Shown here: positions 31,414-48,058 of the stretch, in pieces
How positions within the stretch are numbered: position 1 is the stretch's first letter
Layout: every line of letters begins with the position of its first letter
NCBI GenBank assembly: GCA_934168275.1
Contig: CAKPNA010000001.1
Location: forward strand, 249,034-313,033
From: an uncultured Bacilli bacterium
GTDB lineage: Bacteria > Bacillota_I > Bacilli_A > RF39 > UBA660
Length of the DNA stretch: 64,000 nucleotides
Reading direction: 5' to 3'
Position numbers and translations under genes: made by a program
Notes under the pieces: model-generated
Database searches by the model: none
What the model saw: only the letters and a program-made list of their open reading frames with translations
Told to the model about the DNA's origin: nothing

Positions 31414-31800
31414 CTAACGATTACCTCTTACATATTCTGCCAAGGAAATATCCGCCGGACACAAATCATAATTTATAATATCTTCTCTATCGACAAACCT
31501 ATATTCTGAATGGTCATGTAAATGAAACTCCCCTGCTATATATTTGCATTCATATAATCTTAAATCAACTGTTTTAGATGGATATTCGCAAATACTATTC
31601 GTAAGAAATCTAATTGCTTTCACTCTCATGTCAAACTCTTCCATTATCTCTCTTTCAATAGCCTGCATTTCTGTTTCATCTTTTTCCACCTTACCACCAG
31701 GAAACTCCCACTTACCAAGAACCTCCTCTGAACCCGTTGATCGACGTGCAATTAAATACTTCCCATCTTTCTCTATTAAAGCTGCAACTACTGTTATCAT
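31414..31800 (-). CDS. NUDIX hydrolase (MutT/NudG-like), chromosomal copy
   Basis: 128 aa with the Nudix box GKWEFPGGKVEKDETEMQAIEREIMEEF. Confidence 0.85.
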   Translation of the reverse strand: MITVVAALIEKDGKYLIARRSTGSEEVLGKWEFPGGKVEKDETEMQAIEREIMEEFDMRVKAIRFLTNSICEYPSKTVDLRLYECKYIAGEFHLHDHSEYRFVDREDIINYDLCPADISLAEYVRGNR

Positions 31801-31889: not shown

Positions 31890-33125
31890 CTATCTCTTCA
31901 TCCAATTCTTACCATCAACTACCCTAGCTACAACCATTGAATTAGATAAATCACCAACAACATTAAGCATTGTAGCCGGCGCATCAATAATAGTAGCAAT
32001 AATTGTAAGTATTGGAAGTGCTCCTGTTCCATATCCCATCATTGTTAGAATCATCATTTCTGATATTGTTCCCCCACCAATAGGAACTGCTGTAACAAGA
32101 AGTGTCGCCACTAAGGCTACTAATAATACCTTACTAACGCCACCAAAACCACTAATATCTGTACCAAATAAACTTACTAAAAACATAATCTTAAAAACAC
32201 TACCAATAATTGAACCATCTTTATGAAAACTAGTACCAAGAGGTATCACTGTTTCCGCTATATCATCAGATACTCCTATCTTTTTCGCACATTCACTATT
32301 TACTGGAATAGATGCCGCTGATGAACATGTCGCAATCGAAGTCAAACTAGCCGGTATAGCATTCTTCCAAAATCTTTTAATACCATCAACTCCCCCAGCC
32401 ATAAAAGCATATATTGTATACACAATAAAGTAAAATAATAAACATACTATCGTATATATAACAAAAGTCTTAATATACCCAACTGCTATAGCACTACCAA
32501 AAGTACCAACCAAAGAAGCAGTACAGCACATAAAACCTATCGGAGCATAATACATAATAATATTAACAACCTTCATAATAACTTCATTAAAAGATTCTAA
32601 TACTTCTCTAGCCTTATCTCCCTTCTTACCAGCCATATTAATAGCCACTCCAAATATAATAGAAAATACTAATAAAGCCATTAAATTATCTGTACTAAGT
32701 AAATCACTAAACTTACTAACTGTAAGTGTTTTAGCAGTCCTCTCTAATATATTAAGTTCTTCTATTTTTACATCTTCTACTAAACTACTCTTAATATCAC
32801 TAACTCTCTCAGTATCAACTAAATTAATCTTATATGTCGAAACAAAACCCACTACTACTGCTACTAAAGAAGTAATAATAAAAGTAATTATTGTCGTAAT
32901 CATAATCTTGCCAAGTCTTTTAGCACTTTTAATCTTCGATATAGATACTGTTATTGAAAGAAATATTAGCGGTACTACAACTACTAAAAGCATATTAATA
33001 AACATATCTCCTAAAGGACTAAGAATACTAGCTTTCTCTTTAAATATAAGTCCTATAATCGTACCAATAATAACTGCTAAAATTAATATAATACTAGACT
33101 TATAATTTTTCATAAACTTTTTCAT
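31890..33125 (-). CDS. Dicarboxylate/amino acid:cation symporter (DAACS; GltP/SstT-like)
   Basis: 411 aa, polytopic. SIATCSSAASIPVN matches the DAACS re-entrant loop motif. Confidence 0.75.
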   Translation of the reverse strand: MKKFMKNYKSSIILILAVIIGTIIGLIFKEKASILSPLGDMFINMLLVVVVPLIFLSITVSISKIKSAKRLGKIMITTIITFIITSLVAVVVGFVSTYKINLVDTERVSDIKSSLVEDVKIEELNILERTAKTLTVSKFSDLLSTDNLMALLVFSIIFGVAINMAGKKGDKAREVLESFNEVIMKVVNIIMYYAPIGFMCCTASLVGTFGSAIAVGYIKTFVIYTIVCLLFYFIVYTIYAFMAGGVDGIKRFWKNAIPASLTSIATCSSAASIPVNSECAKKIGVSDDIAETVIPLGTSFHKDGSIIGSVFKIMFLVSLFGTDISGFGGVSKVLLVALVATLLVTAVPIGGGTISEMMILTMMGYGTGALPILTIIATIIDAPATMLNVVGDLSNSMVVARVVDGKNWMKR

Positions 33126-33249
33126 AACATCACCTTTCTAATATCATTATATTATTAATAAATAAACATTATAAGTATTATAAATCCACACTAAAAATAA
33201 ATATTATTACTATAATCCACACTTATGATATAATAAAGATGAGGTAACT

Positions 33250-34785
33250 ATGAAAAAATATATAAAATTAAATAATAATGATAATCATCTATCTCTAGGT
33301 AATTTTACTAGAATAATAAAAGAAAACACTATTAATAAAACTAGTGCTATACAAATAGAAGTATTTAATGCTCTATTTAATACTAATAATATAAATGATA
33401 CTACTGTAAATAACTATTGTATTGGTATAAGAAGTATAAATAATGAATATAAACAACAATACATAATATATAAAAAGAAATATCAAAAAGATAAATATAT
33501 TCTACTAGATATAATAATTAATTTATTAACCATAATAACTGGTAATATCTATACAAACTTATCTAAGAATGAAAAGATAAATATAATAAATAATAATAGT
33601 ATATTAAAAACAATAACTATAAAATTATATAATATAAGTAAAAATGATAAAGAAGTATCTAAAGAATTATCTAGTAATTTATTATATTTAATAAGTAATA
33701 ATAATTTATATGAAGCCCTTACTCAAATACTATTCTTTATTATCTTAGATAAAAAGCAACCCATATATGAAGATAATTTAAAAAAAGAAATAATAGAAAA
33801 TCTTCTAAACAATACATTAGTGTCCCCTAAAGAGTTAGAAGAATATTTAAATCTTAAACTAAGTGAAGGTATTAACTATAACTACTCTTTAACTACTCTA
33901 GCCAAGAATAATAATCCATATGCTTTATATGAATTAGGTAGTGATGAATACAAAGGATATATTAAAGGATATCCAAGATATGATATAAGTTATAAATACT
34001 TTAAAGAAGCATCTTTAAAAGAACATCCTAGTAGTTATTATATGATGGCTAAAATGTTAATTAATAATAATATTGGTAATAAAACAAATAAAGATTTAAA
34101 ACTAGCTTATGAATATTTAAATAAAGCTATTAAATTAGGTAATGTAGCATCTATTAATTTATTAGGTAATATGTATAAAAGAGGCTTATATGTAAAGAAA
34201 GATATTGAGAAAGCTAAGTCTTTATATGAAGAAGCGGCCTCATATAACTACGTTTATGCTTATAATAACTTAGGTAAAATATATGAAGATATGAAAGATT
34301 ACCAAAAAGCCTTCTATTACTTTGAAAAGTCTTCTCTACTTGGTGAGTCTTATGCTCTAAATACTCTAGGAGAATATTATCGTAAAGGAATATATGTAAG
34401 CATTGATTTAGATAAAGCCTTTGAACTTTATAATAAAGCTTTGGAGTCTCCCATCGATAATATTTACCCATATGCTTACTATAACTTAGCAAAATATTTC
34501 TATCTAACCGGAGATGTAGTATTAGTAAAAGATATAAATAAGGCTATCAACTATTTATCTATAGCAAGTAGTAATGATATTATTGAAGCATCTACTTTAT
34601 TATTATATATATATGTTGAAGAATATTTGAAAGAATTAAATGATGAAATGATACCTAAAATAAAAGAATTAGTTATTACTATTGAAAGGCATCCAAAGTA
34701 TAATGAAGAAATAAAAGAAGAAATAGATAGTAACTTATTAAAACTTAAAGAGAATAAAAAAATAAATATAGATGTTATATTTTAA
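33250..34785 (+). CDS. Sel1-like repeat (TPR-related) protein
   Basis: 511 aa. The C-terminal half carries tandem Sel1-like repeats (AYEYLNKAIKLGNVASINLLGNMYKRGLYVKKDIEKAKSLYEEAA...YALNTLGEYYRKGIYVSIDLDKAFELYNKA). Confidence 0.7.
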   Translation: MKKYIKLNNNDNHLSLGNFTRIIKENTINKTSAIQIEVFNALFNTNNINDTTVNNYCIGIRSINNEYKQQYIIYKKKYQKDKYILLDIIINLLTIITGNIYTNLSKNEKINIINNNSILKTITIKLYNISKNDKEVSKELSSNLLYLISNNNLYEALTQILFFIILDKKQPIYEDNLKKEIIENLLNNTLVSPKELEEYLNLKLSEGINYNYSLTTLAKNNNPYALYELGSDEYKGYIKGYPRYDISYKYFKEASLKEHPSSYYMMAKMLINNNIGNKTNKDLKLAYEYLNKAIKLGNVASINLLGNMYKRGLYVKKDIEKAKSLYEEAASYNYVYAYNNLGKIYEDMKDYQKAFYYFEKSSLLGESYALNTLGEYYRKGIYVSIDLDKAFELYNKALESPIDNIYPYAYYNLAKYFYLTGDVVLVKDINKAINYLSIASSNDIIEASTLLLYIYVEEYLKELNDEMIPKIKELVITIERHPKYNEEIKEEIDSNLLKLKENKKINIDVIF

Positions 34786-34825
34786 CTATATTTATTTTAT
34801 GTGTGCGAGCAAAAATTAGAACTTT

Positions 34826-34842
34826 TGCTCTCTTCAGGGGGG
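34826..34842. repeat. Left copy of the island-flanking direct repeat (GCTCTCTTCAGGGGG preceded by hairpin gagcaaaa...ttttgctc)
   Basis: A 15-nt GC-rich identity with 43553-43567. Such a sequence is very unlikely by chance in 26%-GC DNA. Confidence 0.6.
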
Positions 34843-34944
34843 CCTGTTCTCTTCAGTTAGAAGAGACCAAATTGTGTTAAACCATTTAAATACGGGCCTT
34901 TTTATATTGGCATAAACCGTCATTTACCGTGGTTTTTTAGTATT

Positions 34945-34970
34945 TTTGTACCTAAATTGTACCTAAAAAA
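34945..34970. repeat. Tandem TGTACCTAAA direct repeats (left subterminal copy)
   Basis: tttttGTACCTAAAtTGTACCTAAAAaa. A near-identical pair occurs at 43474-43505. Confidence 0.6.
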
Positions 34971-34974
34971 GACA

Positions 34975-35673
34975 TCAATTACTTTTTTGATGCCTTTGTT
35001 TTTTTCTTAACTTGTTTTTTAGATTTTTTCTTTTTTCTACAATATTTGTATTAATACATTCAATATATAATTCACTAAATATTTCTTCTAATCTTTCAAT
35101 CATACCATCTTCACCTTTTAAAAATTTCTTTGCTCCTATAAATTGACTATATGAAAAGTACAACATTATTATTACGAAACTAAAACTTACTAGATATGGT
35201 AGTGCAATTGCCAAACCATTAAAGTCAAAGCCATCTTTAGTATAAAATGAAAGTATTGCTGGAATAGCTATTGATAATATAGCTAACAAATTGCCTCCAA
35301 CTATTTTAGTTTTAATCATATTCCTATTGTGATCAATTATGCATAAAAGTGTTTTTTCATTATACATATTATTTTTTATAAAGTAATCTTTAAATAGTTC
35401 TTTTTCAGCATTTCTAATAATAAATGGTAATGTTATCTCATTTTCGTTTCTTTTACCTATACTTAAATGCAATTTTGTATTTAATACCTTTTCACTTACA
35501 ACTTTCATAATTAATAACATAGCTATAAACACTAAGATCATTGGTACTATTTTATTTAAAAAATTGAATATTAATGAAATCAATATAAATACAACATATA
35601 TCCAAAACGTTCTTTTTTTAATAATGTTATATGGACTTTTTTTCTTATATATTTCTTCTATATCTTTGTACAT
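34975..35673 (-). CDS. Hypothetical membrane protein (island cargo)
   Basis: 232 aa with about 4 TM segments and a basic Lys/Arg-rich C-terminus. No recognisable family. Confidence 0.45.
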   Translation of the reverse strand: MYKDIEEIYKKKSPYNIIKKRTFWIYVVFILISLIFNFLNKIVPMILVFIAMLLIMKVVSEKVLNTKLHLSIGKRNENEITLPFIIRNAEKELFKDYFIKNNMYNEKTLLCIIDHNRNMIKTKIVGGNLLAILSIAIPAILSFYTKDGFDFNGLAIALPYLVSFSFVIIMLYFSYSQFIGAKKFLKGEDGMIERLEEIFSELYIECINTNIVEKRKNLKNKLRKKQRHQKSN

Positions 35674-35759
35674 ATTATTCCCCCTAAATTTAACTAATAT
35701 TATATCACAAATAACTTGACTAATTGATTAATACAACAACTATTAAAAAGGAGGATTAT

Positions 35760-36032
35760 ATGGTTAATAGCGTTGTTATTTCAGGATGCTTTAAAGGTAT
35801 TGAAAATGAAGAATTACTCTTAAAAGTTGAAGGTTTAGAAAACCATCAAATTGTCAGAATAAATATTTCAAAAGGTTTTCAAAAAGAATTAGATAATTAC
35901 ATCAAAGAAAATGATTTAATTGGCATAAAAGGTTATATTGAAGTTGATGATCTTCATAGAATTATAATTATTGCAACAAAAATTACTTTTATCAAATTAA
36001 AAAGCTCAGAATTAAATTTTCTGAGCTTTTAA
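35760..36032 (+). CDS. Small hypothetical protein, possibly OB-fold-like (island cargo)
   Basis: A strong RBS (aaaaaggagg) lies 5 nt before the ATG at 35760, giving ~90 aa (MVNSVVISGCFKGIENEELLLKVEGLENHQIVRINISKGF...). The pattern is weakly SSB/PriB-like. The gene ends in a hairpin shared with the convergent gene. Confidence 0.45.
   Translation: MVNSVVISGCFKGIENEELLLKVEGLENHQIVRINISKGFQKELDNYIKENDLIGIKGYIEVDDLHRIIIIATKITFIKLKSSELNFLSF
35999..36030. terminator. Bidirectional hairpin (aaaagctcaga-attaaatttt-ctgagctttt) shared by two convergent genes
   Basis: A perfect 10-11 bp stem with flanking A/T runs. It overlaps the last codons of both 35760..36032(+) and 36029..37309(-). Confidence 0.6.
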
Positions 36033-37309
36033 TTTGAATATATTTTATAACTTGTTGGAACAAAATTATAATCCGTATTATTGAATAGATCTTTACCTCT
36101 TACTATTTTTAGATAACGGTCTTTACTTTCACTATTAATTATCCTATACAAATAATAATTATCTATATGTTTTTTTGCAAAATCTATTTCATCAGACGTA
36201 ATATCAATTGGTGTTCCTTCATTACCCTTTGTTGATTTGACTTCAATATATTTTTCAACATATTCACCATTTTCATTTAATTCAAATGATAAAATATCAA
36301 ATCCTTCATTCTCTTTTTTATTATTAAAAAATTCTTCCATTTCCCTAACTTGTTCTTGGGCTTCTTCTTCCATTAAGCGCCTGATTTCATTTTCATATAC
36401 AACTTTCTCATTTATAATACCCTGATTTGTTTTTATGATTTCTTCAGCTATATAGTCTGGCTTTTTAGTTCTTTGTATTTTTTTATCTGTTTTCCTATAC
36501 TTTCTTATATTTATTTTACCTTCCCTATATTCCAAATCATTTTGTTCCTCAATCATATCAGAATATACTTTGCTTTCGATTTCAGTTATTTCATAAACTA
36601 TTTCGCTAAATTTTTCATCTTTTTCAAAATTATAATCATTTGGATATACAATTGATAAAGGAAATTTCCATACGAGTCTATCGTTTCCATCTATGTCCTT
36701 TTCTACAACTTGATATGGTTCAGCACATAGTTTAACTTGTCCTTCGAAAATATATTTTTTATTATTATCTTTGGAGAATAAATACATTGGTAAATCATTT
36801 TCGTTTGATTCATAAATTGTTTTATTGTTTTTTGTGATAGTTTGATCTCCTGTTAATCCCTCTCCAGTATATGTAATAAAACCGTTTTCAACTAAACTAT
36901 CACCATATACACCATTTTCTTCTGATGTTGTTAATACTAAACAGTTTAATGAATTAGTTTTCATTATGCCTGACTGACCACTTATTTTAAAAATTGCCAT
37001 AAGTTGATCTCGTGTAAATACATCACCAATATTCATATTGTTTATAAATTTTATTTGATCATAATATATTGATTTATATAGACCTGATCCTTTTTCTTTT
37101 AGAATGTATTCTTCTGTTCCAGAAAATGCTTCTGATAATACACTATGTGTTTCTAATGCTGCTCTTACTGAAGCACCACCATTATTTATACCTACATCTC
37201 TATTTTTGTCAACTTCTTCATAGATTTCTTTTAGTGGAATCCACTCTTTTCCAGTTCTTCTATGAATAGCAATAACTGAGTTATAAACAATCTCTCTTAA
37301 AGTACTCAT
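36029..37309 (-). CDS. SRA-like (5mC/5hmC-reader-type) domain fused to C-terminal PD-(D/E)xK nuclease-like DUF3883 domain; candidate modification-dependent (Type IV-like) restriction protein
   Basis: 426 aa. The central region (FITYTGEGLTGDQTITKNNKTIYESNENDLPMYLFSKDNNKKYIFEGQVKL) matches the SRA/YDG pattern (YTGeGg...dQ..gN.aL...PVrvfR...Y.YdGlY). The C-terminus (GFDILSFE...KYIEVKSTKGNEGTPIDITSDEIDFAKKHIDNYYLYRI) matches DUF3883 with a D...E-V-K core. The N-terminus is winged-helix-like. Confidence 0.55.
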   Translation of the reverse strand: MSTLREIVYNSVIAIHRRTGKEWIPLKEIYEEVDKNRDVGINNGGASVRAALETHSVLSEAFSGTEEYILKEKGSGLYKSIYYDQIKFINNMNIGDVFTRDQLMAIFKISGQSGIMKTNSLNCLVLTTSEENGVYGDSLVENGFITYTGEGLTGDQTITKNNKTIYESNENDLPMYLFSKDNNKKYIFEGQVKLCAEPYQVVEKDIDGNDRLVWKFPLSIVYPNDYNFEKDEKFSEIVYEITEIESKVYSDMIEEQNDLEYREGKINIRKYRKTDKKIQRTKKPDYIAEEIIKTNQGIINEKVVYENEIRRLMEEEAQEQVREMEEFFNNKKENEGFDILSFELNENGEYVEKYIEVKSTKGNEGTPIDITSDEIDFAKKHIDNYYLYRIINSESKDRYLKIVRGKDLFNNTDYNFVPTSYKIYSN

Positions 37310-37311
37310 AA

Positions 37312-37698
37312 TTATTTCTCCTTAACATATTTAGCAAGCGGAATATCAGCAGGTGCTAAATCATAATTTAATAAATTATCTTTTTCTACCCATTTATATT
37401 CTGAATGATCATGTAAATGAAAATCACCCGATATATAAGTACAACTATACAATTTTAAATCAACTGTCTTTTGAGGGTATTTGCATACATTATTTACTAA
37501 GAATTTATTTGCATGAACTTCTAATTCAAACTCTTCTTTAATTTCTCTTTCTATTGCGATTTTTTCGTCTTCGTCCTGTTTTACTTTACCACCAGGAAAT
37601 TCCCACTTGCCAAGTACGTTTGGATCTCCTGTAGAGCGTTTGGCTATTAAAACTTTATTATCTTTTTCTATTAACGCTGCTACAACATTTATAATCAT
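37312..37698 (-). CDS. NUDIX hydrolase (MutT/NudG-like), island copy, co-operonic with the SRA/PD-(D/E)xK gene
   Basis: 128 aa with the Nudix box GKWEFPGGKVKQDEDEKIAIEREIKEEF. It is about 65% identical in protein to the chromosomal copy at 31414..31800, and a 2-bp gap separates it from the downstream nuclease gene. Confidence 0.85.
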   Translation of the reverse strand: MIINVVAALIEKDNKVLIAKRSTGDPNVLGKWEFPGGKVKQDEDEKIAIEREIKEEFELEVHANKFLVNNVCKYPQKTVDLKLYSCTYISGDFHLHDHSEYKWVEKDNLLNYDLAPADIPLAKYVKEK

Positions 37699-37743
37699 AT
37701 TCTTTCACCATATTAATTATATCATAGTTTTTTATTATCTAAC

Positions 37744-37770
37744 AAAAAAAGGCTTATTTAAAGCCTTAGT
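37744..37770. terminator. Rho-independent terminator of the RM operon (minus strand)
   Basis: On the minus strand the stem is AAGGCTTT-aaat-AAGCCTT followed by TTTTTTTGTT. It overlaps the stop codon of the 591-aa gene. Confidence 0.65.
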
Positions 37771-39541
37771 AAACTATATACATAGGAGAATTCAAAGTTA
37801 TCTCTCCCTCTAGCGATCCTGATGAACTTTTAATATTATCAAATATTTCAAAAATAATTGGATTAGATGATAGTATTTTCCATACAATATTTCCTGTTCC
37901 ATTAATCATAATGTACATCAAATAATCAAAACGTGTTTCTCCGGGTGCCATAGGAGACTCTTGACCTCCTACACCGATATAACATTCTTTAATAACAATT
38001 GGAGTATATACTTTTTCAATTAATTGATTTAATTCTGCCATCTTTTCAGAATCATTTCTAACGGAAACCAATTTGTCAATGTCAGATCTTTGTGTTTCAT
38101 AAATTTTCTTTTTGTTTTCTTGTAAAAAAGCATCGTATTCATCGTCAGAACATTTGTGAACGCTAATTATATCTATGTAATTCCTTTTTGTTGTAAGTCC
38201 TGTTCCCTGAAGTATTTTTCTATCGCCTTGAGCACCAGGATAACTAACAGCTATATTTTTCATATTATTCATCAAAAATACACTCATAGAAGCAAAAGTA
38301 ACAACATCCTCATTTATCATATCATTAGGTAGTAACTTGGTTGGCATTTTGATTTTCGAAGTCATTAAACTTTTTTGTCTTTCTGTCAAATAATAATTAT
38401 CAACTAATTCTAAATTCCATTTAATTTCTACAATGACATTATCATTTAAATCGCAAAGAATTATCTTTTCACCAAAATGAAGTAAATTATTAATTACGGA
38501 TAAACTACTATTTAAACAATTCATTAAGTCATTATCATTGATAATAATTGTATTGCCTGTAATTAGTGCAGATTGAAATAAATTATGTGTATTAGTTGCC
38601 TTTTTAAATAAATCATACGCAATATCAAATGTGACAATATTATCATTAGGTATTACTTTAGCATCTATAATCTCCATTATTGCATCTTGATTGTTTCCTT
38701 CATATAATGATTTATATTTGTTTCTGTTTTCTCTTTGAACTAAAAATTTTACAATAGGTTTTTGATTATAATTTTTATTTAAGAATAAAAGCATTCCTCT
38801 TTCTGGATCCATTCCATGTCCATATCGATTAAACTTCAACATTAATTTTCCATCAGTTCCAACTCTAATTCTCGAAGAATTAGTAAATTCTAATCTTTCA
38901 TAATTATAATTAGAGTGTACATAATTTGAATACTTATTCTTTTCTGCTTCAAAATATTCATTATCACTAGCTGTCTTATTATATGATTCTATCATTCCAT
39001 TCATAATTTCTTTTAATTCATTTAAAAATGGAGGACAAGATATTTTTGTAATATCAGTCATAACTAAATCAGAGTTTTCAATCAAAGGCCAATCAATATG
39101 ATAATAAATTCCACCCATATTTAAAGTCGTATAGTATTCATGTTGAATTTTAATTTTTGTTCCTCCACCAAAATCAGTATTATTCATTTCTGAAGGTGAA
39201 ATCTTAATGCATGGTGTTTGATAATATGTACTCCAATACATAACATCATATCTCTGCATTATATGATCATCTGTTGGTACTGCAGTAGAAAATTCAATTG
39301 CAACAATAGGATGTTCTGTATCATCTTCTTCTATTATACTAATAAATCCATCAAAATCTTTATGTGAAAATAATTTTGAAATAATTGAATCATTACGGTA
39401 AGCAGAAAAATTATTCGGCTTCGTATAAATAATTTTATGATGTACATCTCGCAAAACATCATTGTCTGAAATATAATCTAATAAATATAGTCCCTGTTCA
39501 TAACATTCACAATATACTCTTAATTCTTTTATACTTCTCAT
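37766..39541 (-). CDS. Putative restriction endonuclease of a two-methyltransferase (Type IIS-like) RM operon
   Basis: 591 aa with no database-recognisable motif by eye; a possible PD-(D/E)xK-like core is DFDGF...VAIEFS. It is the last gene of the M1-M2-X operon, 11 bp after the M2 stop. Its size suits a Type IIS or other atypical Type II enzyme. Confidence 0.4.
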   Translation of the reverse strand: MRSIKELRVYCECYEQGLYLLDYISDNDVLRDVHHKIIYTKPNNFSAYRNDSIISKLFSHKDFDGFISIIEEDDTEHPIVAIEFSTAVPTDDHIMQRYDVMYWSTYYQTPCIKISPSEMNNTDFGGGTKIKIQHEYYTTLNMGGIYYHIDWPLIENSDLVMTDITKISCPPFLNELKEIMNGMIESYNKTASDNEYFEAEKNKYSNYVHSNYNYERLEFTNSSRIRVGTDGKLMLKFNRYGHGMDPERGMLLFLNKNYNQKPIVKFLVQRENRNKYKSLYEGNNQDAIMEIIDAKVIPNDNIVTFDIAYDLFKKATNTHNLFQSALITGNTIIINDNDLMNCLNSSLSVINNLLHFGEKIILCDLNDNVIVEIKWNLELVDNYYLTERQKSLMTSKIKMPTKLLPNDMINEDVVTFASMSVFLMNNMKNIAVSYPGAQGDRKILQGTGLTTKRNYIDIISVHKCSDDEYDAFLQENKKKIYETQRSDIDKLVSVRNDSEKMAELNQLIEKVYTPIVIKECYIGVGGQESPMAPGETRFDYLMYIMINGTGNIVWKILSSNPIIFEIFDNIKSSSGSLEGEITLNSPMYIVY

Positions 39542-39552
39542 ACTAAATACAT

Positions 39553-40656
39553 CTACACCTCCTCTATTTTTTCAAATACTAAAAAGTATTCCTTCTTTCC
39601 CTTAGTTCGAAAGCTTTGCTGAAAATTTCTACTTGTTTTATCCAACTCAGTATACTTTTCCTCGACTAATTTCCATTTTAATTTTTCAGCAATAAGCAGC
39701 GTATGTTCCCTGCTATCATATTTTTCACCAGCAATTTTTCCATCACCTATAATTATTACTATATGTGCTCCTACCTTAAGTGAATAATTTGCTGATAAAA
39801 ATATTTTATATAAATCATCAGTAAACTTACTTGCCTCTTTCTTTAAACTTGAGAATTCTCTTCTTGAACCTATCTCTTTTTCCATAACAGGTTTAAAATC
39901 ATATCCCAACCATAACATTCGATGTTTATGATATAAATAATAATCATATGTATTAGGGTATGGTGGAGAAGTGATTAAAAAATCCACACTATTTTTTTTC
40001 AATATTTTATTAATCAAATTTGAATCAGTTAAGTATACCATGGAATCACAATCTAATTTATTTGTTAATACTGCAATATCAAAAACATCTTTTAACTTAC
40101 TAATAAATGATTCTAATACTTCTTCAACTGATATGTCACCTTTATCCTTTGCAGAATATCTTGTATCACTTTCTTGGTTAGATAATGGTAATATTACAAT
40201 TGAAAATGCCAAATAACATAAGTCAACAATTCTTTCATCAGCATTGTATGCTTTTATACAATGTCTAATAGCTGATAAGCCAATAATTACATTTTCTCTA
40301 AACCAATGATTGATCGAATCATAATTTAATATTTCAAATTCTTCTTTATTAATATTTTTAAAAAATTCAGTCGTCTTTTTCTCAAAACTATTTATTTTTT
40401 TTAAATCTGATTTATTATAAGTATTAGTTTTTACTTTAGATATCTGATAAGCAACAGGATTAATATCAAAACCAACTGATCTTCTTTCTAACCATCTTGC
40501 CGCAAGAAGTGTTGTTCCACTTCCAACAAACGGATCTAAAATCACATCATTCTTTTTAGTATACTTATTGATATAGTATTCAAGCATTTCTGCAGTATAT
40601 TTTGCTGGATATGAGTGAATACGATCAATTTTATTTATATCTTCAATATTTATCAT
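39553..40656 (-). CDS. DNA methyltransferase (N4-cytosine/N6-adenine, SPPY type), M2
   Basis: 367 aa. Motif I (ILDPFVGSGTTLLAARWLERR) lies near the N-terminus and motif IV (ITSPPYPNTYDYY) about 190 aa later, an alpha-class order. Confidence 0.85.
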   Translation of the reverse strand: MINIEDINKIDRIHSYPAKYTAEMLEYYINKYTKKNDVILDPFVGSGTTLLAARWLERRSVGFDINPVAYQISKVKTNTYNKSDLKKINSFEKKTTEFFKNINKEEFEILNYDSINHWFRENVIIGLSAIRHCIKAYNADERIVDLCYLAFSIVILPLSNQESDTRYSAKDKGDISVEEVLESFISKLKDVFDIAVLTNKLDCDSMVYLTDSNLINKILKKNSVDFLITSPPYPNTYDYYLYHKHRMLWLGYDFKPVMEKEIGSRREFSSLKKEASKFTDDLYKIFLSANYSLKVGAHIVIIIGDGKIAGEKYDSREHTLLIAEKLKWKLVEEKYTELDKTSRNFQQSFRTKGKKEYFLVFEKIEEV

Positions 40657-41606
40657 TTTCTTAACACCACCAAATATGAATGATTTTGATTTATATAAAA
40701 TACTGAAGGATATCCCAATAAAACTAAACTTCTTTGTTCATTTTGATCCCATATTATTAAGTCATGATATTTAAATCCGGCTTTTTGCCCTAACTCAGCA
40801 ATTAAACCATGTAAATTTACATATGGAATTTTGTTTTTAATATCTCTAAAATCTTTAACCACCCAGATATTATATCCTCCAGGTTTTGTTTTTTGATAAA
40901 TCTTCTTCATTAGTTTTAAAACACTATCAGAATAATCTTTTATTGCCATGTTTCCAAAATCTTTCTCGTTTGAAGAATAAGGTTTAGCAGTAGAATTATT
41001 ATCTTCAACTATTCTGGAATGTTTATGTCTATTTTTTCTGTCATCTTCAACCTTTAATAATAAATCAGCATAAGGTGGAGATGTAAAAGTTAATTGTACA
41101 CTTTCATTTTTTATTTCTTTAATCTTTTCAAGACAGTCACCTTCTAAAATGTTGAAAGAAACATTAGATTTAAGTAAATTTTCTTCATGGTTTTCATATA
41201 TGTAGTCAATAAATTCTTTATTTAATTCAATACCAACGGAATTTCTTTCAAGCTTTTCTGCTCCAAACATAGTAGTCCCTGTACCAACAAACGGATCTAA
41301 AACAAGATCTCCTTTATTTGAATACATTGTAATAACTCTTTCAGCAAGTTTTTGAGGAAATGTCGCTCCATGAATTAAATGTTGCTTTTTTCTTGCAGAT
41401 GAAACATCATCCCATACACTTCTGCTACATAAAGTCCATTCTCTTGCTGTCATTCCATTAAAAGTTTTTTCTCTTTGAGACTTTTCTTTTTCAATGTCTT
41501 CGGGTGTTTTAGAATTATCTCTGATATTTGCTAGTTCTTTTTTTAATTCATTTATTTCTTCATTTTTCTGTTTAATCAATTTTAATATTTCTTTTTCAGT
41601 TTGCAT
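40653..41606 (-). CDS. DNA methyltransferase (N4-cytosine/N6-adenine, SPPY type), M1
   Basis: 317 aa with motif I (LVLDPFVGTGTTMFGAEKLERNSVGIE) and motif IV (FTSPPYADLL). Its stop overlaps the M2 start by 4 nt. Confidence 0.85.
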   Translation of the reverse strand: MQTEKEILKLIKQKNEEINELKKELANIRDNSKTPEDIEKEKSQREKTFNGMTAREWTLCSRSVWDDVSSARKKQHLIHGATFPQKLAERVITMYSNKGDLVLDPFVGTGTTMFGAEKLERNSVGIELNKEFIDYIYENHEENLLKSNVSFNILEGDCLEKIKEIKNESVQLTFTSPPYADLLLKVEDDRKNRHKHSRIVEDNNSTAKPYSSNEKDFGNMAIKDYSDSVLKLMKKIYQKTKPGGYNIWVVKDFRDIKNKIPYVNLHGLIAELGQKAGFKYHDLIIWDQNEQRSLVLLGYPSVFYINQNHSYLVVLRK

Positions 41607-41749
41607 AAGGTCACCTCATATAATAAAATATCACATCTAATTCTAAAAGTCCAGTCCCATTTTCTCTTCTATATAATTATACCATTAAAAAAGATGTTTT
41701 TCCTATAAAACTACAAAATATTTATATTATTTTTAATAATTTGTAGATT

Positions 41750-43128
41750 AAATTTGAAAGTGCACAATTGTTGTGCAGTTAGGTTTGTAATAGTATATAA
41801 TATCTTCTAAGCAACTTATTTGTCATTTAAAGGAGGAAAGTTACAATGACAAAATATAAACATCTTTCTTATGAAGATAGAAAAAATATAGAAGATGGAT
41901 TGAATCAAAATAAATCCATAAATCAAATTGCTAAAGATATTAACAAATCTCATTCTACTATTTTAAGAGAAATAGATAGAAATAAGGTTTATTATAAGCC
42001 AACAGCTTGGAATAATTGTTCCGCTGTTTCTGCTCCATGTCAGAAATTAGATAAAACACCCTATGTATGTAATGGCTGTAAATCAAGAAGCGGATGCAGA
42101 AAAATAAGATATACTTATTATGCTAGAAAAGCTAATGATGCTTATAAAGAACTAATTAGTTCATGTAGACAAGGTATAAGTTTAACTGAAGAAGAAATAT
42201 ATAATATTAATAAAATAATCACACCTCTCGTTAAAAAAGGTCAAACAATAAATCATTTATATATTAATCATCCTGAAGTTTTAAACTTTTCTAAAGTTTC
42301 TTTTTATAATTATATTAATAATGGCATATTTGAATTTAGACCTCTTGATTTCCCTAGAATTGTAAAATATAAAAAAAGAAAAGCAACAAAACGTAGAACA
42401 CGACAAGAAAGAGAAATATTAATAGGTAGAAGGTATGAAGATTTTATTAATTATATAAGTAAAAACCCAAATTTAAACATTGTCGAAATGGATACAGTTG
42501 AAGGACTTCAAACTGATTCAAAATGTATTCTTACTCTTTTTTTGGAGAAAATGAAACTTAATGCTTATGTTTTTATTGGAAAGTCAAACAACAGATGAAG
42601 TTACTAGAACATTTGAATATCTTCAAAAAGTTTTACAAGAAGATGATTATAAAAAACTATTTCAGGTTATTCTTACTGATAATGGGCATGAATTTTATGA
42701 TGTACTAAACATTGAATGCAATCATAAAATTGGAGAATACATCACACATGTTTTTTATTGTAATCCATCAGCTTCTTGGCAAAAAGGTGGAATTGAAAAA
42801 AATCATGAATTTATTAAATATGTTTTACCAAAGAAAACAACATTTGAGCATTTAACTCAAAACGATTGTAATATTGTTGCTAATAATATAAATAGTCTAT
42901 GTAGAGAATCGTTAAATGATAATTGTCCTTTTAAGGCAATGTTATTTCTATGTGATGAAAAGATTTTAAATACCTTAAATATGTATTATATTGACCAGAT
43001 AAAGTTCAATTAAATAGAAAACTATTAAAATAAAAAAAGATATTTATTACCCAAAACAAATATCTCAATGACAAATAAATTGCCTACCAATAATAATATA
43101 CTAAGCAGAATTGTGCACTTTCTTTTAA
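41750..43128 (+). mobile_element. IS30-family insertion sequence with imperfect terminal inverted repeats (core GAAAGTGCACAATT)
   Basis: The left end is ttaaatttGAAAGTGCACAATTgttgtgcag (41748-41780). The right end is ctaagcagAATTGTGCACTTTCttttaaaa (43101-43130), its reverse complement. The two ends enclose the IS30 transposase reading frames. Confidence 0.75.
41846..43013 (+). pseudogene. IS30-family DDE transposase, split into two overlapping frames (frameshift at a T7 run near 42536-42542)
   Basis: ORF1 (250 aa) has the N-terminal HTH (YKHLSYEDRKNIEDGLNQNKSINQIAKDINKSHSTILREIDRN) and the first D (NIVEMDTVEG). ORF2 (150 aa) has ILTDNGHEF and SWQKGGIEKNHEFIKYVLPK (the DDE E-region). The two overlap at 42561-42598. 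Confidence 0.75.
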
Positions 43129-43139
43129 AAAACATGCAA

Positions 43140-43470
43140 ATTCTGTCTTTTCGTCGTGGAATAAAACTTCCTTGACGAACAATACTATACCACATTTTAT
43201 TGATTATGTTAATTTTTTTATATTAAAATGTCCAAAAAAAAGTGCAGTTTCTATTAAAACTACACTTTTTTGACATTTATGTACTTAATTATGCACTTTA
43301 CTTTTTATTTAACAGAATTTTCAGATTAATTGGCAAAAAAGCAAATATTTTTCATTGAGAATTTTTGCCACTTTTGCCACTTTTTCTCAATGAGATTTAA
43401 AACAAATAAAAAATAATTGAAGATTCTTGCCATTTTCGTCACCTTTCTTCAACAAACCATTCTTAAAACT
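43140..43470. repeat. Cluster of palindromes and iteron-like short direct repeats adjacent to the IS30 right end
   Basis: An imperfect ~22-bp IR is aaatgtccaaaaaaaagtgcag...ctacacttttttgacattt. A second IR (tcattgagaa...ttctcaatga) encloses TTGCCACTTTTGCCACTTTT. A third IR (ttgaaga...tcttcaa) encloses TTGCCATTTTCGTCACCTTT. Confidence 0.5.
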
Positions 43471-43473
43471 AAT

Positions 43474-43505
43474 TTTTTTGTACCTAAAAGTGTACCTAAA
43501 ATTAC
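43474..43505. repeat. Tandem TGTACCTAAA direct repeats (right subterminal copy)
   Basis: tttttttGTACCTAAAagTGTACCTAAAatta, in the same orientation as the 34945-34970 copy. Confidence 0.6.
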
Positions 43506-43543
43506 TTAATAGTTCTAAACCTCTATATTAATAAACAAAAATG

Positions 43544-43575
43544 AGAGCTTTCGCTCTCTTCAGGGGGTTTTGGTT
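43544..43575. terminator. recG rho-independent terminator; it contains the right copy of the island-flanking direct repeat GCTCTCTTCAGGGGG
   Basis: On the minus strand the stem is GAGAGC-gaaa-GCTCTC followed by ATTTTTGTTTATT. The + strand reads gagagctttcGCTCTCTTCAGGGGG. Confidence 0.65.
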
Positions 43576-43731
43576 GAACACTCCTACACACAATCGTAGC
43601 GAGTGTGTCATAATCTCTTATGACATATTAATTGTAATATATAATAAATAAAAATGCAAGAGTTTTACAAAAAATTTTTCATAAAGATTTTTTTCAAATT
43701 ATCAAACCCCAATAATGACTAATAAAATCTA

Positions 43732-45729
43732 CTAATTAACCCCTTCTAATTTCTTACCAACATCATCTAACAATTGATATTCACTCCTATTATTCATAAA
43801 AGCAGGCATAAACTCATCAACATCTTTCTTTACCCTAAGTAATAATTCATAATCCCTCTTAACATTAGCCAGTATTAATCCAGTCTCTCCACTTTGTCTT
43901 AACCCAAACAAATCCCCTTCGCCTCTACTTTTAAAATCGTACTCACTAATCTTAAAACCATCACTACAATTCTCTAACATAGCAAGTCTTTCTTCTTTAT
44001 TATCCGCAATTAAAACACAATAACTCTGCAAACTATTTCTACCAACCCTACCTCTTAACTGATGTAACGTTGATAATCCAAATAAATTAGCATTAAATAT
44101 TACCATCATGGTAGCATTCTTAACATTAACACCAACTTCAATAACAGTAGTGGAAATAAGTATATCAACTTCCCCCTCTTCAAATTTACTCATAATACTA
44201 TTCTTTTCCTTAGGATCCATCTTACCATGAACAGAAGCTATCTTAAACATCTTACCAAAAGCCCTATTCATTTTATCCTCTAAATCAACAACACTACTAT
44301 TAACTGATGCCTCACCTTCCTCATTAATCATAGGAGCTATAACATATATCTGATGATGTTCATCTAATTCTTTCTTCATCATAATTAAAACATCCATTAT
44401 CTCATCAGTACCCTTTAAGTAAGTAATAACATCCTTTCTTCCAACCGGTTTAGTTTTTATACTAGATACATCCATATCACCATAAATAGTTAAAGCATAA
44501 GTTCTCGGTATTGGTGTTGCACTCATTGATAAAATATCCGGTAATTCCCCTTTATTCCTAAATGTATCCCTTTGATTAACTCCAAATCTATGTTGCTCAT
44601 CAGTTATTACTAAGCCTAAATTATTAAACATAACTTTATCTTGTATTAAACTTTGTGTCCCTATAATAAAGTCTATCTCCCTATTACTTAATTTATTATA
44701 TATAATCTTCTTATCTTTACTACTAGTAGAAGACGTCAATAAACTAACTTTCATAATACCATCAAATAAACGTGAAGCCTCCTGATAATGTTGATTAGCA
44801 AGTATTTCCGTAGGGACCATTAATGCAGACTGATACCCCGCTAAATAATTAGCGTAAACAGCAATAAAAGCCACAATAGTTTTACCACTACCAACATCAC
44901 CCTGTAATAGCCTATTCATTCTTCTATTACTCTTTAAATCATCAACTATCTCTTTTACCGAACTTAACTGATCACTAGTTAAACTAAATGGTAACTTACT
45001 AATAAATTCATTAACTTTATCGATATCAATAACTTTACTAACCTTATTACTACCACTATTATTTATTAACTTTAAATAATTAATCTTAAATAAATACATA
45101 AATAATTCTTCATACTTTAATCTTTGCTTAGATTTCTTTAACACTAAACCATTATAAGGATTATGTATTAACTTTAAAGCTTCCAACTTAGGCATAAAAT
45201 TATATCTAGCTACTAAATAATCAGGAATATAATCATTACAATGATAACTATCTAAAATAGTATTTATAATCTTAGCAATAAACTTTCTATTTAATCCATT
45301 AGTAGTATAGTAAACTGACTCAACAGTAGGAGTATCATTTAATTTCTCAAATCTAATCTCACTACATACAATATTATTTTTATATTTCTCATACTTACCT
45401 ATAACAGTTATCTCTCTACCTAACTCTAACTCTTTCTTTAAATAAGCTTTATTATATACACTAACATTAATTAAATAACTACCTGTATTAATTCTAAATA
45501 CTATCTTCCTTAATTTAGGATTAATATATACAGTACTAACATTACCATCTATACACCCATCTATTACTATTCTATCCCCATCATTTAAAGAAGATATATT
45601 ACTCTTTCCAATAATATCATATCTAAATGGATAATGATTAACTAAATCATCTGTAGTATATATATTTATTTTATTAAATAACTCTAACGTTTTAGGACCT
45701 ATTTCATTTACTTCACTCAATAAAGCCAT
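43732..45729 (-). CDS. recG: ATP-dependent DNA helicase RecG
   Basis: 665 aa with an N-terminal wedge/OB region and helicase motif I (GDVGSGKTIVAFIA), followed by DEQHRFG and QLRGRVGR motifs. Confidence 0.9.
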   Translation of the reverse strand: MALLSEVNEIGPKTLELFNKINIYTTDDLVNHYPFRYDIIGKSNISSLNDGDRIVIDGCIDGNVSTVYINPKLRKIVFRINTGSYLINVSVYNKAYLKKELELGREITVIGKYEKYKNNIVCSEIRFEKLNDTPTVESVYYTTNGLNRKFIAKIINTILDSYHCNDYIPDYLVARYNFMPKLEALKLIHNPYNGLVLKKSKQRLKYEELFMYLFKINYLKLINNSGSNKVSKVIDIDKVNEFISKLPFSLTSDQLSSVKEIVDDLKSNRRMNRLLQGDVGSGKTIVAFIAVYANYLAGYQSALMVPTEILANQHYQEASRLFDGIMKVSLLTSSTSSKDKKIIYNKLSNREIDFIIGTQSLIQDKVMFNNLGLVITDEQHRFGVNQRDTFRNKGELPDILSMSATPIPRTYALTIYGDMDVSSIKTKPVGRKDVITYLKGTDEIMDVLIMMKKELDEHHQIYVIAPMINEEGEASVNSSVVDLEDKMNRAFGKMFKIASVHGKMDPKEKNSIMSKFEEGEVDILISTTVIEVGVNVKNATMMVIFNANLFGLSTLHQLRGRVGRNSLQSYCVLIADNKEERLAMLENCSDGFKISEYDFKSRGEGDLFGLRQSGETGLILANVKRDYELLLRVKKDVDEFMPAFMNNRSEYQLLDDVGKKLEGVN

Positions 45730-46470: not shown

Positions 46471-46524
46471 TTGTAGAAAAAAACTATCAATAAATTATTG
46501 ATAATTTTTTGATTATATTTTTTA

Positions 46525-47034
46525 CTATATTGTAGGTAACTCATTGGTCCATTTTTCCAAATCCTTATGTGTTTGGTCTAATTCAGCATATATTTCCTCA
46601 TCCGTTTTTCTTATTGTATGATTTTCGTCTTTATAAAAATCAATTTTCTTTGATAAATAAGATTTATTTTCTATAAGTTCATATTTAAAATTACTAGGAT
46701 GCTTTTGAAAATTATAATCATAATGAAATAAAATATAAGGATATGTTGCTGTTTTTTCATCTTTATGATAAAAATATTCTTTATCCTTTCCTACAAAATG
46801 CAAACTTTTATCATTTTGAGCTTCGCTCAAATATTCTTCCAATTTATTGATATCTTCTTTATGTAGTGGCCAAAGAATTCCTACATCATTATGCCCTGCA
46901 CATGAAAAATCTGTTTTATATCCTTTTTTGTTTAATATTGCAATTACATTTCTTATTTCATAATCACAATAAATATATTCATTTAATTCATCTTTTATCT
47001 CAAAGGTATTTTTATTAATGAATGCTATAGACAT
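46525..47034 (-). CDS. Hypothetical protein (cargo between comEC-end repeats 2 and 1)
   Basis: 169 aa with no recognisable motif. Confidence 0.45.
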   Translation of the reverse strand: MSIAFINKNTFEIKDELNEYIYCDYEIRNVIAILNKKGYKTDFSCAGHNDVGILWPLHKEDINKLEEYLSEAQNDKSLHFVGKDKEYFYHKDEKTATYPYILFHYDYNFQKHPSNFKYELIENKSYLSKKIDFYKDENHTIRKTDEEIYAELDQTHKDLEKWTNELPTI

Positions 47035-47099
47035 TTTTTCACCTCAGTATTTATTATATCATACCTTTTTACCAATAAATTAATTTTATTCACTTTTTC

Positions 47100-47889
47100 T
47101 AATTCTTTTAAATTTTTAGCTAGAGTTAGTAGATTTTCTGGCATTGTACCAACTAGTTTGTAAATTGTATTCCTAATTTCTTTACAGACTTCATAACGAG
47201 TTTCATTGGCTTCACTTTCTAATTTAATATTTTAATTTTTTAATTTTTGTTCCGTTTGAGAAATTCTAAATAAATTTGCAATTAACTCATCACTACCTAT
47301 ATTATCTAAAATATCTTCTCTATATCTAAGTTTATTTCGTTTAGTAATATCGTTTGCAGTTCCTCCATTATATAATTCCTTATACCCTGAATTATGAAAT
47401 TTATCAAAATTTTTTTCTCACCATTTCTAGCAAAAATATTCAAAGAATAATTACCTTTCCCTGTTAAATTTCTTTGATAAAATCTTTTCTGTTTCTCAGT
47501 AAGTTCACTATATTTTTTTCACTTAATTCCTGCTTTCTAGTTTAAATAGCAAAAGATGTTTGTGCAAGCACTATAATTTCTTTTCTTGAGTCGCCATCTT
47601 GTGTCACTAAATAACATGCATATCTTGATAGCTTATAATATCTAGTTTCCCTTTTAGTATTAGAACCTATATCAACCATTTTACCAACATCAGCAAAATG
47701 GTTTTCAATATCTACATTTGAATTTTTACATGCTAATTTTGCTTTACTAATTACATTTTCAAATCTTCTACACTGTGCATACTCTAATATCTTTTGTAAT
47801 TCTCTAGTCAACCAATACTCATTATCATTTCTATCAAAATGTTTTATATCTTCGAATAATTTTGCTGTATATTCTTTTAGTTCATTCAT
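47100..47889 (-). pseudogene. DinD-like (DNA-damage-inducible protein D / Bro-N-like) gene with only the N-terminal ~115 codons intact
   Basis: The intact ORF 47542..47889 (…ENVISKAKLACKNSNVDIENHFADVGKMVDIGSNTKRETRYYKLSRYACYLVTQDGDSRKEIIVLAQTSFAI) matches the DinD N-terminal domain. DinD is normally ~270 aa. The 47100-47541 segment has no long ORF in any frame, consistent with frameshifts. Confidence 0.5.
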
Positions 47890-48030
47890 TTTTCTTCCTT
47901 CTATGGTGAATATGTCTCAATTCTTAATTTATTTTTTTTAATTTTAAACATAATACTACCATTTTGATCTGTTCTATATATTTTTATTAATAAGTTACAA
48001 AATTCATCACCATAATATTCTTTTGTTTCT
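47890..48030. repeat. comEC 3'-end-like repeat, copy 2 (encodes ..YGDEFCNLLIKIYRTDQNGSIMFKIKKNKLRIETYSP* then an RBS and the ATG of the next gene)
   Basis: Reverse-complement translation aligns with the comEC C-terminus (RYGHPNKEVLNNLSDSKIYRTDQDGSVVFKVKNSKLKIKTYSP*). It abuts the dinD-like start codon. Confidence 0.75.
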
Positions 48031-48058
48031 TCGTAATTCACAATATCGCATCCTATAC

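Follow-up and report, generated by a model that had tools for sequence, protein, structure and literature searches.

An integrase-less defence island with attachment-like ends at the 3' end of a conserved small RNA gene in an uncultured gut Bacilli bacterium

The locus described here belongs to an uncultured Bacilli bacterium of the RF39 lineage (GCA_934168275.1, contig CAKPNA010000001.1), of which a stretch of 64,000 nt was analysed; this stretch is called the window, and all positions follow its numbering. Between a gene for a Sel1-repeat protein and recG lies an island of accessory genes (34842-43552). From the Sel1 side, it contains genes for a 232-aa hydrophobic protein and a 90-aa OB-fold protein, a nuclease gene with a NUDIX gene, a type II restriction-modification (RM) operon and an insertion sequence (IS) of the IS30 family, and a gene for a small RNA (sRNA) separates its recG-side end from recG itself. 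A preliminary description of this DNA had already proposed an accessory island with duplicated ends, and had left its mobilisation unexplained. Comparable loci found in other contigs are designated by L and a number.

The 15-mer GCTCTCTTCAGGGGG is found at 34827-34841 and 43553-43567 in direct orientation. With up to 2 mismatches permitted, these are the only two matches in the 64 kb, against a chance expectation of 0. The duplication had been noticed before, and only the position of the left copy needs correction, by one base (34827-34841, not 34828-34842). The full repeat comprises 32 nt, 34810-34841 and 43536-43567, with 29 of the 32 positions identical, and a hairpin accompanies both copies of the 15-mer, as the preliminary description had it. 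The right-hand hairpin was recognised by a terminator scan as a minus-strand intrinsic terminator, GAGAGC-GAAA-GCTCTC followed by ATTTTTG (43558-43543). We designate the right copy (43553..43567, plus strand) the attachment (att) core of the sRNA-proximal junction. The left segment (34810..34841, plus strand) comprises the distal att core, at 34827-34841, and a decayed remnant of a displaced sRNA terminator at 34810-34826, as assigned by the repeat search and by comparison with L138. The GC content of the island is not distinct from that of its surroundings.

Comparison with other strains places the limits of the island at these repeats. In L138, which comes from the same species (Sel1 protein 98% identical), the window is matched over 32181-34845 at 97.8% identity. 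The match ends at 34845, 4 nt beyond the 15-mer, and unrelated DNA follows, namely an element of the L010 type, 93.8% identical to L010 and with its own paired repeats, TAAGTCATA. At the other end, the sRNA is common to the window, L004 and L010 up to CCCCCTGAAG(AGAG), with divergence immediately beyond. Adjoining the left core, the window and L138 both have a mutated version of the common terminator GAGAGCGAAAGCTCTCATTTTTGTT, as would be expected of an sRNA 3' end that was displaced and has become useless. Direct repeats of the attL/attR type bound the island, similarity to other strains and elements is lost at the repeat, and the island boundaries fall exactly at the cores. The breakpoints of L138, L004 and L010 at the core support the earlier view of the 15-mers as att-site duplications that bound an inserted accessory island.

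Just inside the two ends are two pairs of short direct repeats. Exact copies of TGTACCTAAA are located at 34947-34956 and 34958-34967, ~105-125 nt inside the distal core, and at 43479-43488 and 43491-43500, ~65-90 nt inside the proximal core, all on the plus strand. Four exact copies compare with 0.28 expected in 64 kb, and no shuffle reached 4; with one mismatch, the count of 7 against 8.5 expected is unremarkable. These pairs, for which a recombinase-binding role had been suggested beforehand, are present as described and behave like arm-type sites; most likely they would be bound by the cognate integrase.

Both ends of the island are conserved beyond these repeats. The Sel1-side end, which we call the P arm (34842..34970, plus strand), consists of a hairpin (TCTCTTC-AGTTA-GAAGAGA, 34848-34866) and one TGTACCTAAA pair. 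It is 94-96.5% identical to the ends of the defence islands L149, L150, L152, L155 and L157 and 88% identical to an internal junction of L130, and its relatives occur in at least 4 unrelated genomic contexts. Outside the P arm, the core has decayed in L142 and has one mismatch in L148, L141 and L146 show a tandem junction to a different arm and terminator, and L144 is truncated. The arms of the P-arm hairpin are copies of TGAAGAGA from the core, one of them inverted, and are kept in L130 and L141-L157; the hairpin may be a core-type binding site or a terminator of the cargo genes. The sRNA-side end, or P' arm (43314..43535, plus strand), contains the other TGTACCTAAA pair and two hairpins with GTGACG and GTGGCA loops. 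Its identity to L086 is 87%, and L083, L004, L120, L061 and L091 match it as well; all of these have other cargo. Its two hairpins lie within 43340-43440, with the loops GTGACGAAAATGGCAA and GTGGCAAAAGTGGCAAAA. The second loop resembles the paired ATGTGGCA arm repeats found in the element type of L045 and L130, and may be a leftover or a second set of binding sites. Neither the P-arm hairpin nor the paired TTTAGGTACA repeat had a match in scans of IMG/VR.

The right-hand core had been assigned to the terminator of recG. It does sit in an intrinsic terminator, which belongs to a separate sRNA gene between recG and the island; as judged from fold and conservation, the duplicated segment is the 3' end of this independent, conserved gene. 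The gene, which would be the integration target, covers ~88 nt on the minus strand (43537..43624) and was delimited by its fold, its conservation and the metagenome loci. It is composed of hairpin 1 GUCAUAAGAGAUUAUGAC, hairpin 2 ACACUCGCUACGAUUGUGUGUAGGAGUGU, a single-stranded stretch AACCAAAACCCCCUGAAG (43575-43558) and the intrinsic terminator (43537..43558, minus strand; GAGAGC-GAAA-GCUCUC plus a U tract). A candidate promoter is found at 43631..43670 on the same strand, where two pairs of -35 and -10 boxes are available. The first, read from the sequence, is TTGCAT (43659-43654) and TACAAT (43636-43631) with a spacer of 17 nt, and was chosen by analogy with the TTGACA/TATAAT boxes located 5-6 nt upstream of hairpin 1 in other loci. 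The second, obtained by a scan, is TTGTAA and TATTAT separated by 18 nt (43670-43641).

Conservation and folding both point to a functional RNA. The stretch of 165 bp that separates the recG stop codon (43732) from the repeat is nearly unchanged in relatives with RecG proteins 97%, 89% and 81% identical, and can still be recognised at 59% RecG identity. The predicted fold of the sRNA is far more stable than that of shuffled sequence (z = -4.7). Metagenome loci were gathered by an exact search for the 18-mer AACCAAAACCCCCUGAAG, which was found in at least 120 metagenome contigs and in three IMG/VR viral contigs, all of the latter being integrated copies. Among the matches listed, the order hairpin, hairpin, core and terminator is present in 103 of 105 distinct sequences, and a helix of at least 6 bp ending no more than 6 nt from the core was found in 77 of 79 distinct upstream bodies, compared with 25% of shuffles. 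The same 79 listed bodies have 60 different basal stems and a mean minimum free energy z of -4.5. The helix is retained across 60 different stems, so the structure is kept while the sequence changes. An alignment with MAFFT followed by RNAalifold returned almost no consensus structure because sequence and loop length are too variable among the stems; folding of each sequence with a shuffle control was used in place of the alignment consensus. Two covarying hairpins and an invariant C-rich single-stranded AACCAAAACCCCCUGAAG are observed in the window, L004, L006, L010, L011 and L013-L135. Structure, covariation, the promoter-like site and the terminator support the sRNA as a real, structured RNA gene that is probably transcribed independently.

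No Rfam 15 family matched the window at gathering thresholds, and a search of 43450-43760 with E up to 10 returned only chance-level hits. Literature searches for the core sequence gave no match either. In sRNAs of the RoxS/RsaE type, a C-rich stretch pairs with ribosome-binding sites, and by analogy the C-rich stretch of this sRNA could do the same. The orientation of recG varies among loci, being downstream of the sRNA and convergent with it in L044, L045 and L101, and upstream on the same strand in the window, which suggests inversions around the sRNA site. In L005 (3937-4055; RecG 91% identical), divergence begins ~60 bp past the recG stop codon and the contig ends without the sRNA; the metagenome-assembled genome it comes from is labelled Muribaculaceae, probably by a binning error.

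Related loci carry tyrosine integrases that use this site, which accounts for the mobilisation that had been left unexplained. In 13 loci (including L006, L010, L023, L050, L123 and L133), the strand opposite to the core carries a full-length tyrosine integrase gene 110-560 nt downstream of it, and further loci have one 1.2-5.6 kb from the core. By reading of the sequences, relaxase-like and helicase-like genes follow the integrase in L006, and the combination of integrase, relaxase-like and replication/helicase-like genes is found in L006, L041 and L017. The gene set of L010 is phage-like.

The terminators indicate how these elements are joined to the sRNA gene. One sRNA body occurs with four terminators and another with six, each terminator going with a different downstream element, and the body found in the window occurs with three (window, L004 and L010). 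Identical bodies with element-linked terminators are therefore best understood if the terminator is brought by the element, with recombination inside or adjacent to CCCCCTGAAG. As the linkage of terminators to elements indicates, it is the element's own sequence that restores the sRNA gene at its 3' end. Consequently, the terminator half of the right copy belongs to the element and is not chromosomal as had been assumed, since one and the same sRNA body can end in different terminators. Beyond the terminator, AAGGGTTTG-like sequence is present in many loci and is followed by two direct repeats characteristic of the element type; TTTAGGTACA, TTTGGTCCA, TATGACTTA, ATGTGGCA and CTACACACCCA are such pairs, all in the same position. 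Where an integrase is located 2.5-5.6 kb from a TTTAGGTACA arm, it belongs to one of two groups, clusters 10/11 or cluster 5; the integrase clades associated with TTTAGGTACA arms are of the L041/L117/L134/L135 type and the L004/L086/L149 type. The arm repeats track the integrase type, and their role as integrase-binding sites is putative.

In some relatives, units of core, terminator and arm are arranged in tandem (L113, L030, L044, L130 and L141). The arrays were located at +1369 in L113, +1368 in L030, +2244 in L044, +4440 in L130 and about 7290-7360 in L141/L146. They are made of short cassettes without an integrase of their own, each opening with core, terminator and arm, and their cargo includes Fic-like and AbiEi/AbiEii-like genes (assigned by reading, not by hidden Markov models, HMMs). 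These arrays show only that accretion takes place.

In the island itself, Pfam, NCBIfam, PADLOC and PHROGs revealed no tyrosine or serine recombinase among the encoded proteins, and tblastn with the integrases of the related loci found no match anywhere in the 64-kb window. Four HMM libraries and the tblastn search bear out the previous statement that no recombinase is encoded beyond the IS30 transposase. Relaxase, coupling protein, replication and Abi families were likewise not found among the island proteins with the same four libraries. An island without a recombinase can therefore move only with an integrase that was lost or that acts in trans.

The IS30-family element (41757..43123, plus strand) has terminal inverted repeats GAAAGTGCACAATT and is flanked by TTT on both sides. 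Its transposase is split into overlapping frames (41846-42598 and 42561-43013) of 250 and 150 aa in every contig seen, which indicates that the frameshift is fixed in this lineage. A search of plasmids with this element returned only a weak match to a Metamycoplasma IS30. We considered whether the IS30 element had deleted the integrase of the island and found this unsupported: TTT on both sides is the mark of a simple insertion, and ~580 bp of non-coding DNA remain without the IS.

The cargo genes named in the preliminary description were correct according to Pfam, PADLOC and a structural model, the membrane assignment being a reading of the sequence. The type II RM operon (37766..41606, minus strand) was identified with Pfam and PADLOC. 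It encodes two methyltransferases (40653-41606 and 39553-40656; Pfam N6_N4_Mtase, PADLOC MTase_II) and a restriction enzyme (37766-39541; PADLOC REase_II, E 3.9e-63). On the same strand, at 36029..37698, the same two databases identified a NUDIX gene (37312-37698; PADLOC PDC-S07, E 1.6e-43) followed by a gene for a nuclease with SRA and NOV_C domains (36029-37309; PADLOC PDC-S36, E 3.1e-19, with a weak match to mREase_IV). Together, these two genes look like a type IV, modification-dependent restriction module.

The gene at the distal end (35760..36032, plus strand) encodes the 90-aa protein. An AlphaFold2 model built with 17 homologues (mean confidence score, pLDDT, 74.9) predicts a five-stranded barrel and one helix; its best matches are OB folds of the single-stranded DNA-binding protein (SSB) type, and it does not have the excisionase fold. 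Homologues at 87% identity occupy the same position beside other type IV enzymes in at least 4 genomic contexts, and the DNA of 35652-36031 is 84-85% identical to these loci. The family has proteins of ~85 aa, and one cluster at 87% identity has 384 member sequences. At L141-L158, the OB-fold gene is convergent with a type IV restriction enzyme gene at the distal end of TGTACCTAAA-type islands in all loci looked up. The 232-aa protein (34975..35673, minus strand) is hydrophobic and probably membrane-bound, as read from its sequence without a predictor. It had no significant match in Pfam, NCBIfam, PADLOC or PHROGs, the only one listed being far below the cut-off, and related elements have an unrelated 126-aa hydrophobic protein in its place. 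The earlier suggestion that the products of 34975..35673 and 35760..36032 could contribute to mobility is not sustained, as neither has a recombinase, relaxase or Abi HMM match and the 90-aa protein has an SSB-like OB fold. In related islands, the P arm is followed by a small hydrophobic protein, the 90-aa homologue (87%), a GmrSD type IV enzyme and a type I RM system, and further in there is an intact, split or truncated integrase, or satellite-like genes. Arm, small hydrophobic protein and OB-fold protein travel together beside type IV restriction enzymes, forming a conserved end module.

We suggest that the island (34842-43552) is probably an integrase-less derivative of a family of tyrosine-recombinase integrative elements, comparable to a cis-mobilizable element (CIME), at the 3' end of the sRNA gene. 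It retains both att sites, both conserved arms, the distal-end OB-fold gene and the defence cargo. Members of the family would insert at the 3' end of this conserved ~88-nt sRNA gene, which lies downstream of recG, and would recombine within or next to CCCCCTGAAG(AGAGC). The terminator of the incoming element would restore the sRNA gene at the proximal junction, and the original sRNA 3' end would have been displaced to the far junction, next to the Sel1 gene, and now seems to be decaying there. The IS30 element would have inserted later, inside the island. Movement would be expected only if a related element supplied the integrase in trans, for example by inserting alongside; otherwise the island would be a fixed relic. 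Decay of a member of an integrase-driven family would account for att-like ends without a recombinase, and no new mechanism is needed to explain them.

Several observations weigh against this interpretation. The empty site that had been proposed as a check (Sel1 gene, single terminator, recG) was not found for the species: exact look-ups of the Sel1, RecG and 232-aa proteins returned the same island only, and what the same species offered instead was a different occupant, in L138. For the closest RecG and Sel1 variants, the contigs were of insufficient length, the site had another occupant or the synteny differed, and none had an empty site. No excised circular form was found for the species. 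The empty junction would join the sRNA core to the Sel1 flank (...AACCAAAACCCCCTGAAGAGAGCAAAAGTTCTAATTTTTGCTCGCACACAT...), and the circular one would unite the P arm, core and P' arm (...CTGAAGAGAACAGGCCCCCCTGAAGAGAGCGAAAGCTCTCATTTTTGTTTATTAATATAG...). All contigs with identical flanking or cargo proteins (about 21 per look-up) have the same island in the same place, which gives no direct indication that it moved recently. None of the fetched loci combined the integrase and both ends in one complete TGTACCTAAA-type element. The surroundings of the OB-fold homologue P0245 in L149 include the distal module together with an intact integrase, and the sRNA-proximal end is not within 10 kb; this integrase stands beside the shared distal module followed by TTTGCAG repeats, not the sRNA core, and is therefore only a candidate for the cognate integrase of the TGTACCTAAA repeats. 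In the species with a Sel1 protein 84% identical (L136), other genes follow Sel1 and there is no sRNA, so that the ancestral arrangement of Sel1, sRNA and recG is assumed. Finally, the invariance of the 18-nt core in the metagenome set is partly built in because the set was collected by exact core match; L004, L006, L010 and L011 were found via RecG, independently of the motif, and the same core is present in them.

The alternative that survives best shares the same origin and differs on present activity: the island would still be an active satellite-like element, routinely excised and moved through an integrase whose gene lies at another place in the same genome or on a visiting element. We see this as possible rather than probable. 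Continuing mobilisation in trans would fit the perfect preservation of the cores, identical over 15 nt, and of the four exact 10-nt arm repeats, and also the P arm, whose 94-96.5% identity in at least 4 other genomic contexts points to recent spread of that end. Cassettes without an integrase are also found in tandem at the sRNA site in L113, L030, L044 and L130. However, the identical island keeps the same place in all contigs recovered by the look-ups (about 21 each), no integrase homologue exists in the 64-kb window, and neither an attP-like circular junction nor a match to the arm sequence was found in IMG/VR. A broader version of this idea, which we put forward tentatively, is that the sRNA 3' end could be a dedicated docking platform in uncultured gut Bacilli, where short defence cassettes without an integrase, each delimited by a core, a replacement terminator and conserved arms, accumulate in tandem and are shuffled in trans by the integrases of co-resident satellites or integrative and mobilizable elements (IMEs), the window island being a live cassette. 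If true, this would amount to an integron-like exchange of anti-phage genes built on lambda-type att sites.

The locus could also be a plain variable defence hotspot, reshuffled by homologous recombination in the flanks, with the 15-mers being two similar terminators instead of att sites. Defence genes do cluster here, their content varies between strains and the repeat overlaps terminator-like hairpins, but we consider this explanation improbable: homology with L138, L004 and L010 stops within a few bases of the core, conservation of the sequence immediately inside the cores extends to unrelated genomic contexts, and it is at this same core that tandem arrays and neighbouring integrases are found. 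Construction or movement of the island by the IS30 element, through composite or one-ended transposition, is more doubtful still. There is indeed such an element inside the island (41757-43123), yet it is a single, frameshifted copy with the TTT/TTT flanks of a simple insertion, its inverted repeats are unlike the island ends and absent from the boundaries, and related islands with the same ends do not have it. Least credible is a dispersed intergenic repeat similar to repetitive extragenic palindromes (REP-like), for which the presence of the motif in at least 120 metagenome contigs could be invoked and which the preliminary description had named as the finding that would overturn it, since only two copies exist in the 64-kb window, 103 of the 105 distinct sequences among the matches listed fold as the sRNA architecture, and the extra copies in loci examined in detail sit at junctions of elements downstream of the sRNA.

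Two regions outside the island deserve mention. A second NUDIX gene (31414-31800, minus strand, 128 aa) lies beside an SDF transporter gene, and its product is 66% identical to the island NUDIX (PADLOC PDC-S07 type). In L136, the Sel1 84% relative, AAA_21 and RloB genes are found in place of this neighbourhood, which may be another accessory spot. Upstream of recG, 46500-48100 (L002 6787-8188) contains Bro-N and DUF1016/YhcG genes and small open reading frames without assignment, and may be another accessory or prophage-remnant region.

As for the derivative of an integrative-element family that we propose, its target is of interest by itself. This structured RNA occurs widely, keeps an invariant C-rich stretch in single-stranded form and matches no Rfam family, which makes it a probable new sRNA. 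Its 3' end is an insertion hotspot in poorly known gut Bacilli, where defence systems, Fic/AbiE-like modules and phage-like elements take each other's place. Screening this site may be a workable way of finding new defence genes in these genomes.

Integration of tyrosine-recombinase genomic islands and prophages at the 3' ends of genes for tRNA, tmRNA and other small RNAs, with restoration of the gene by a copy that the element brings, is a pattern reportedly described by Williams in 2002. Our island resembles the tyrosine-recombinase islands of sRNA genes in having an identity block at the sRNA 3' end, a replacement end supplied by the element, the displaced original end at the far junction and paired repeats in both arms. 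It differs in that its target RNA is neither tRNA nor tmRNA and is in no Rfam family, in that the replaced part is an intrinsic terminator, and in that the copy in the window has no integrase. There is also a likeness to integrons, since some relatives stack short cassettes at one fixed site, each bounded by a recombination site containing a hairpin. In contrast to integrons, there is no intI beside an attI and there are no attC-type sites, the junctions consist of a core and arm repeats, arm-type repeats are typical of lambda-like integrases, and the window has a single unit.

The nearest known counterparts are CIMEs, defined as elements that have lost the genes for integration and transfer and retained attL and attR; both CIMEs and tandem accretion at the att sites of ICEs (integrative and conjugative elements) or IMEs are known from the ICESt1-related elements of Streptococcus thermophilus (PMC5704250). 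Like a CIME, the window island is flanked by attL and attR and has no integration or transfer genes, and it occupies a site used by integrase-bearing relatives, in some of which tandem arrays are found. A CIME would originate by decay of an ICE or IME. The integrase-bearing relatives, some with a relaxase-like gene, share the site and the arms or the distal module, and a complete parent with both ends was not recovered. Differently from the known CIMEs, the host is an uncultured low-GC member of the gut Bacilli, the target is an unclassified sRNA gene and not a protein or tRNA gene, the island cargo consists of defence genes, and mobilisation after accretion is putative here. The IMEs of Firmicutes (PMC5704250) are comparable to the same-site relatives L006, L041 and L017, which by reading have integrase, relaxase-like and replication/helicase-like genes, whereas the window element has none of these modules. 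Elements of this kind are already known, and the novelty lies in the target sRNA and in the element family.

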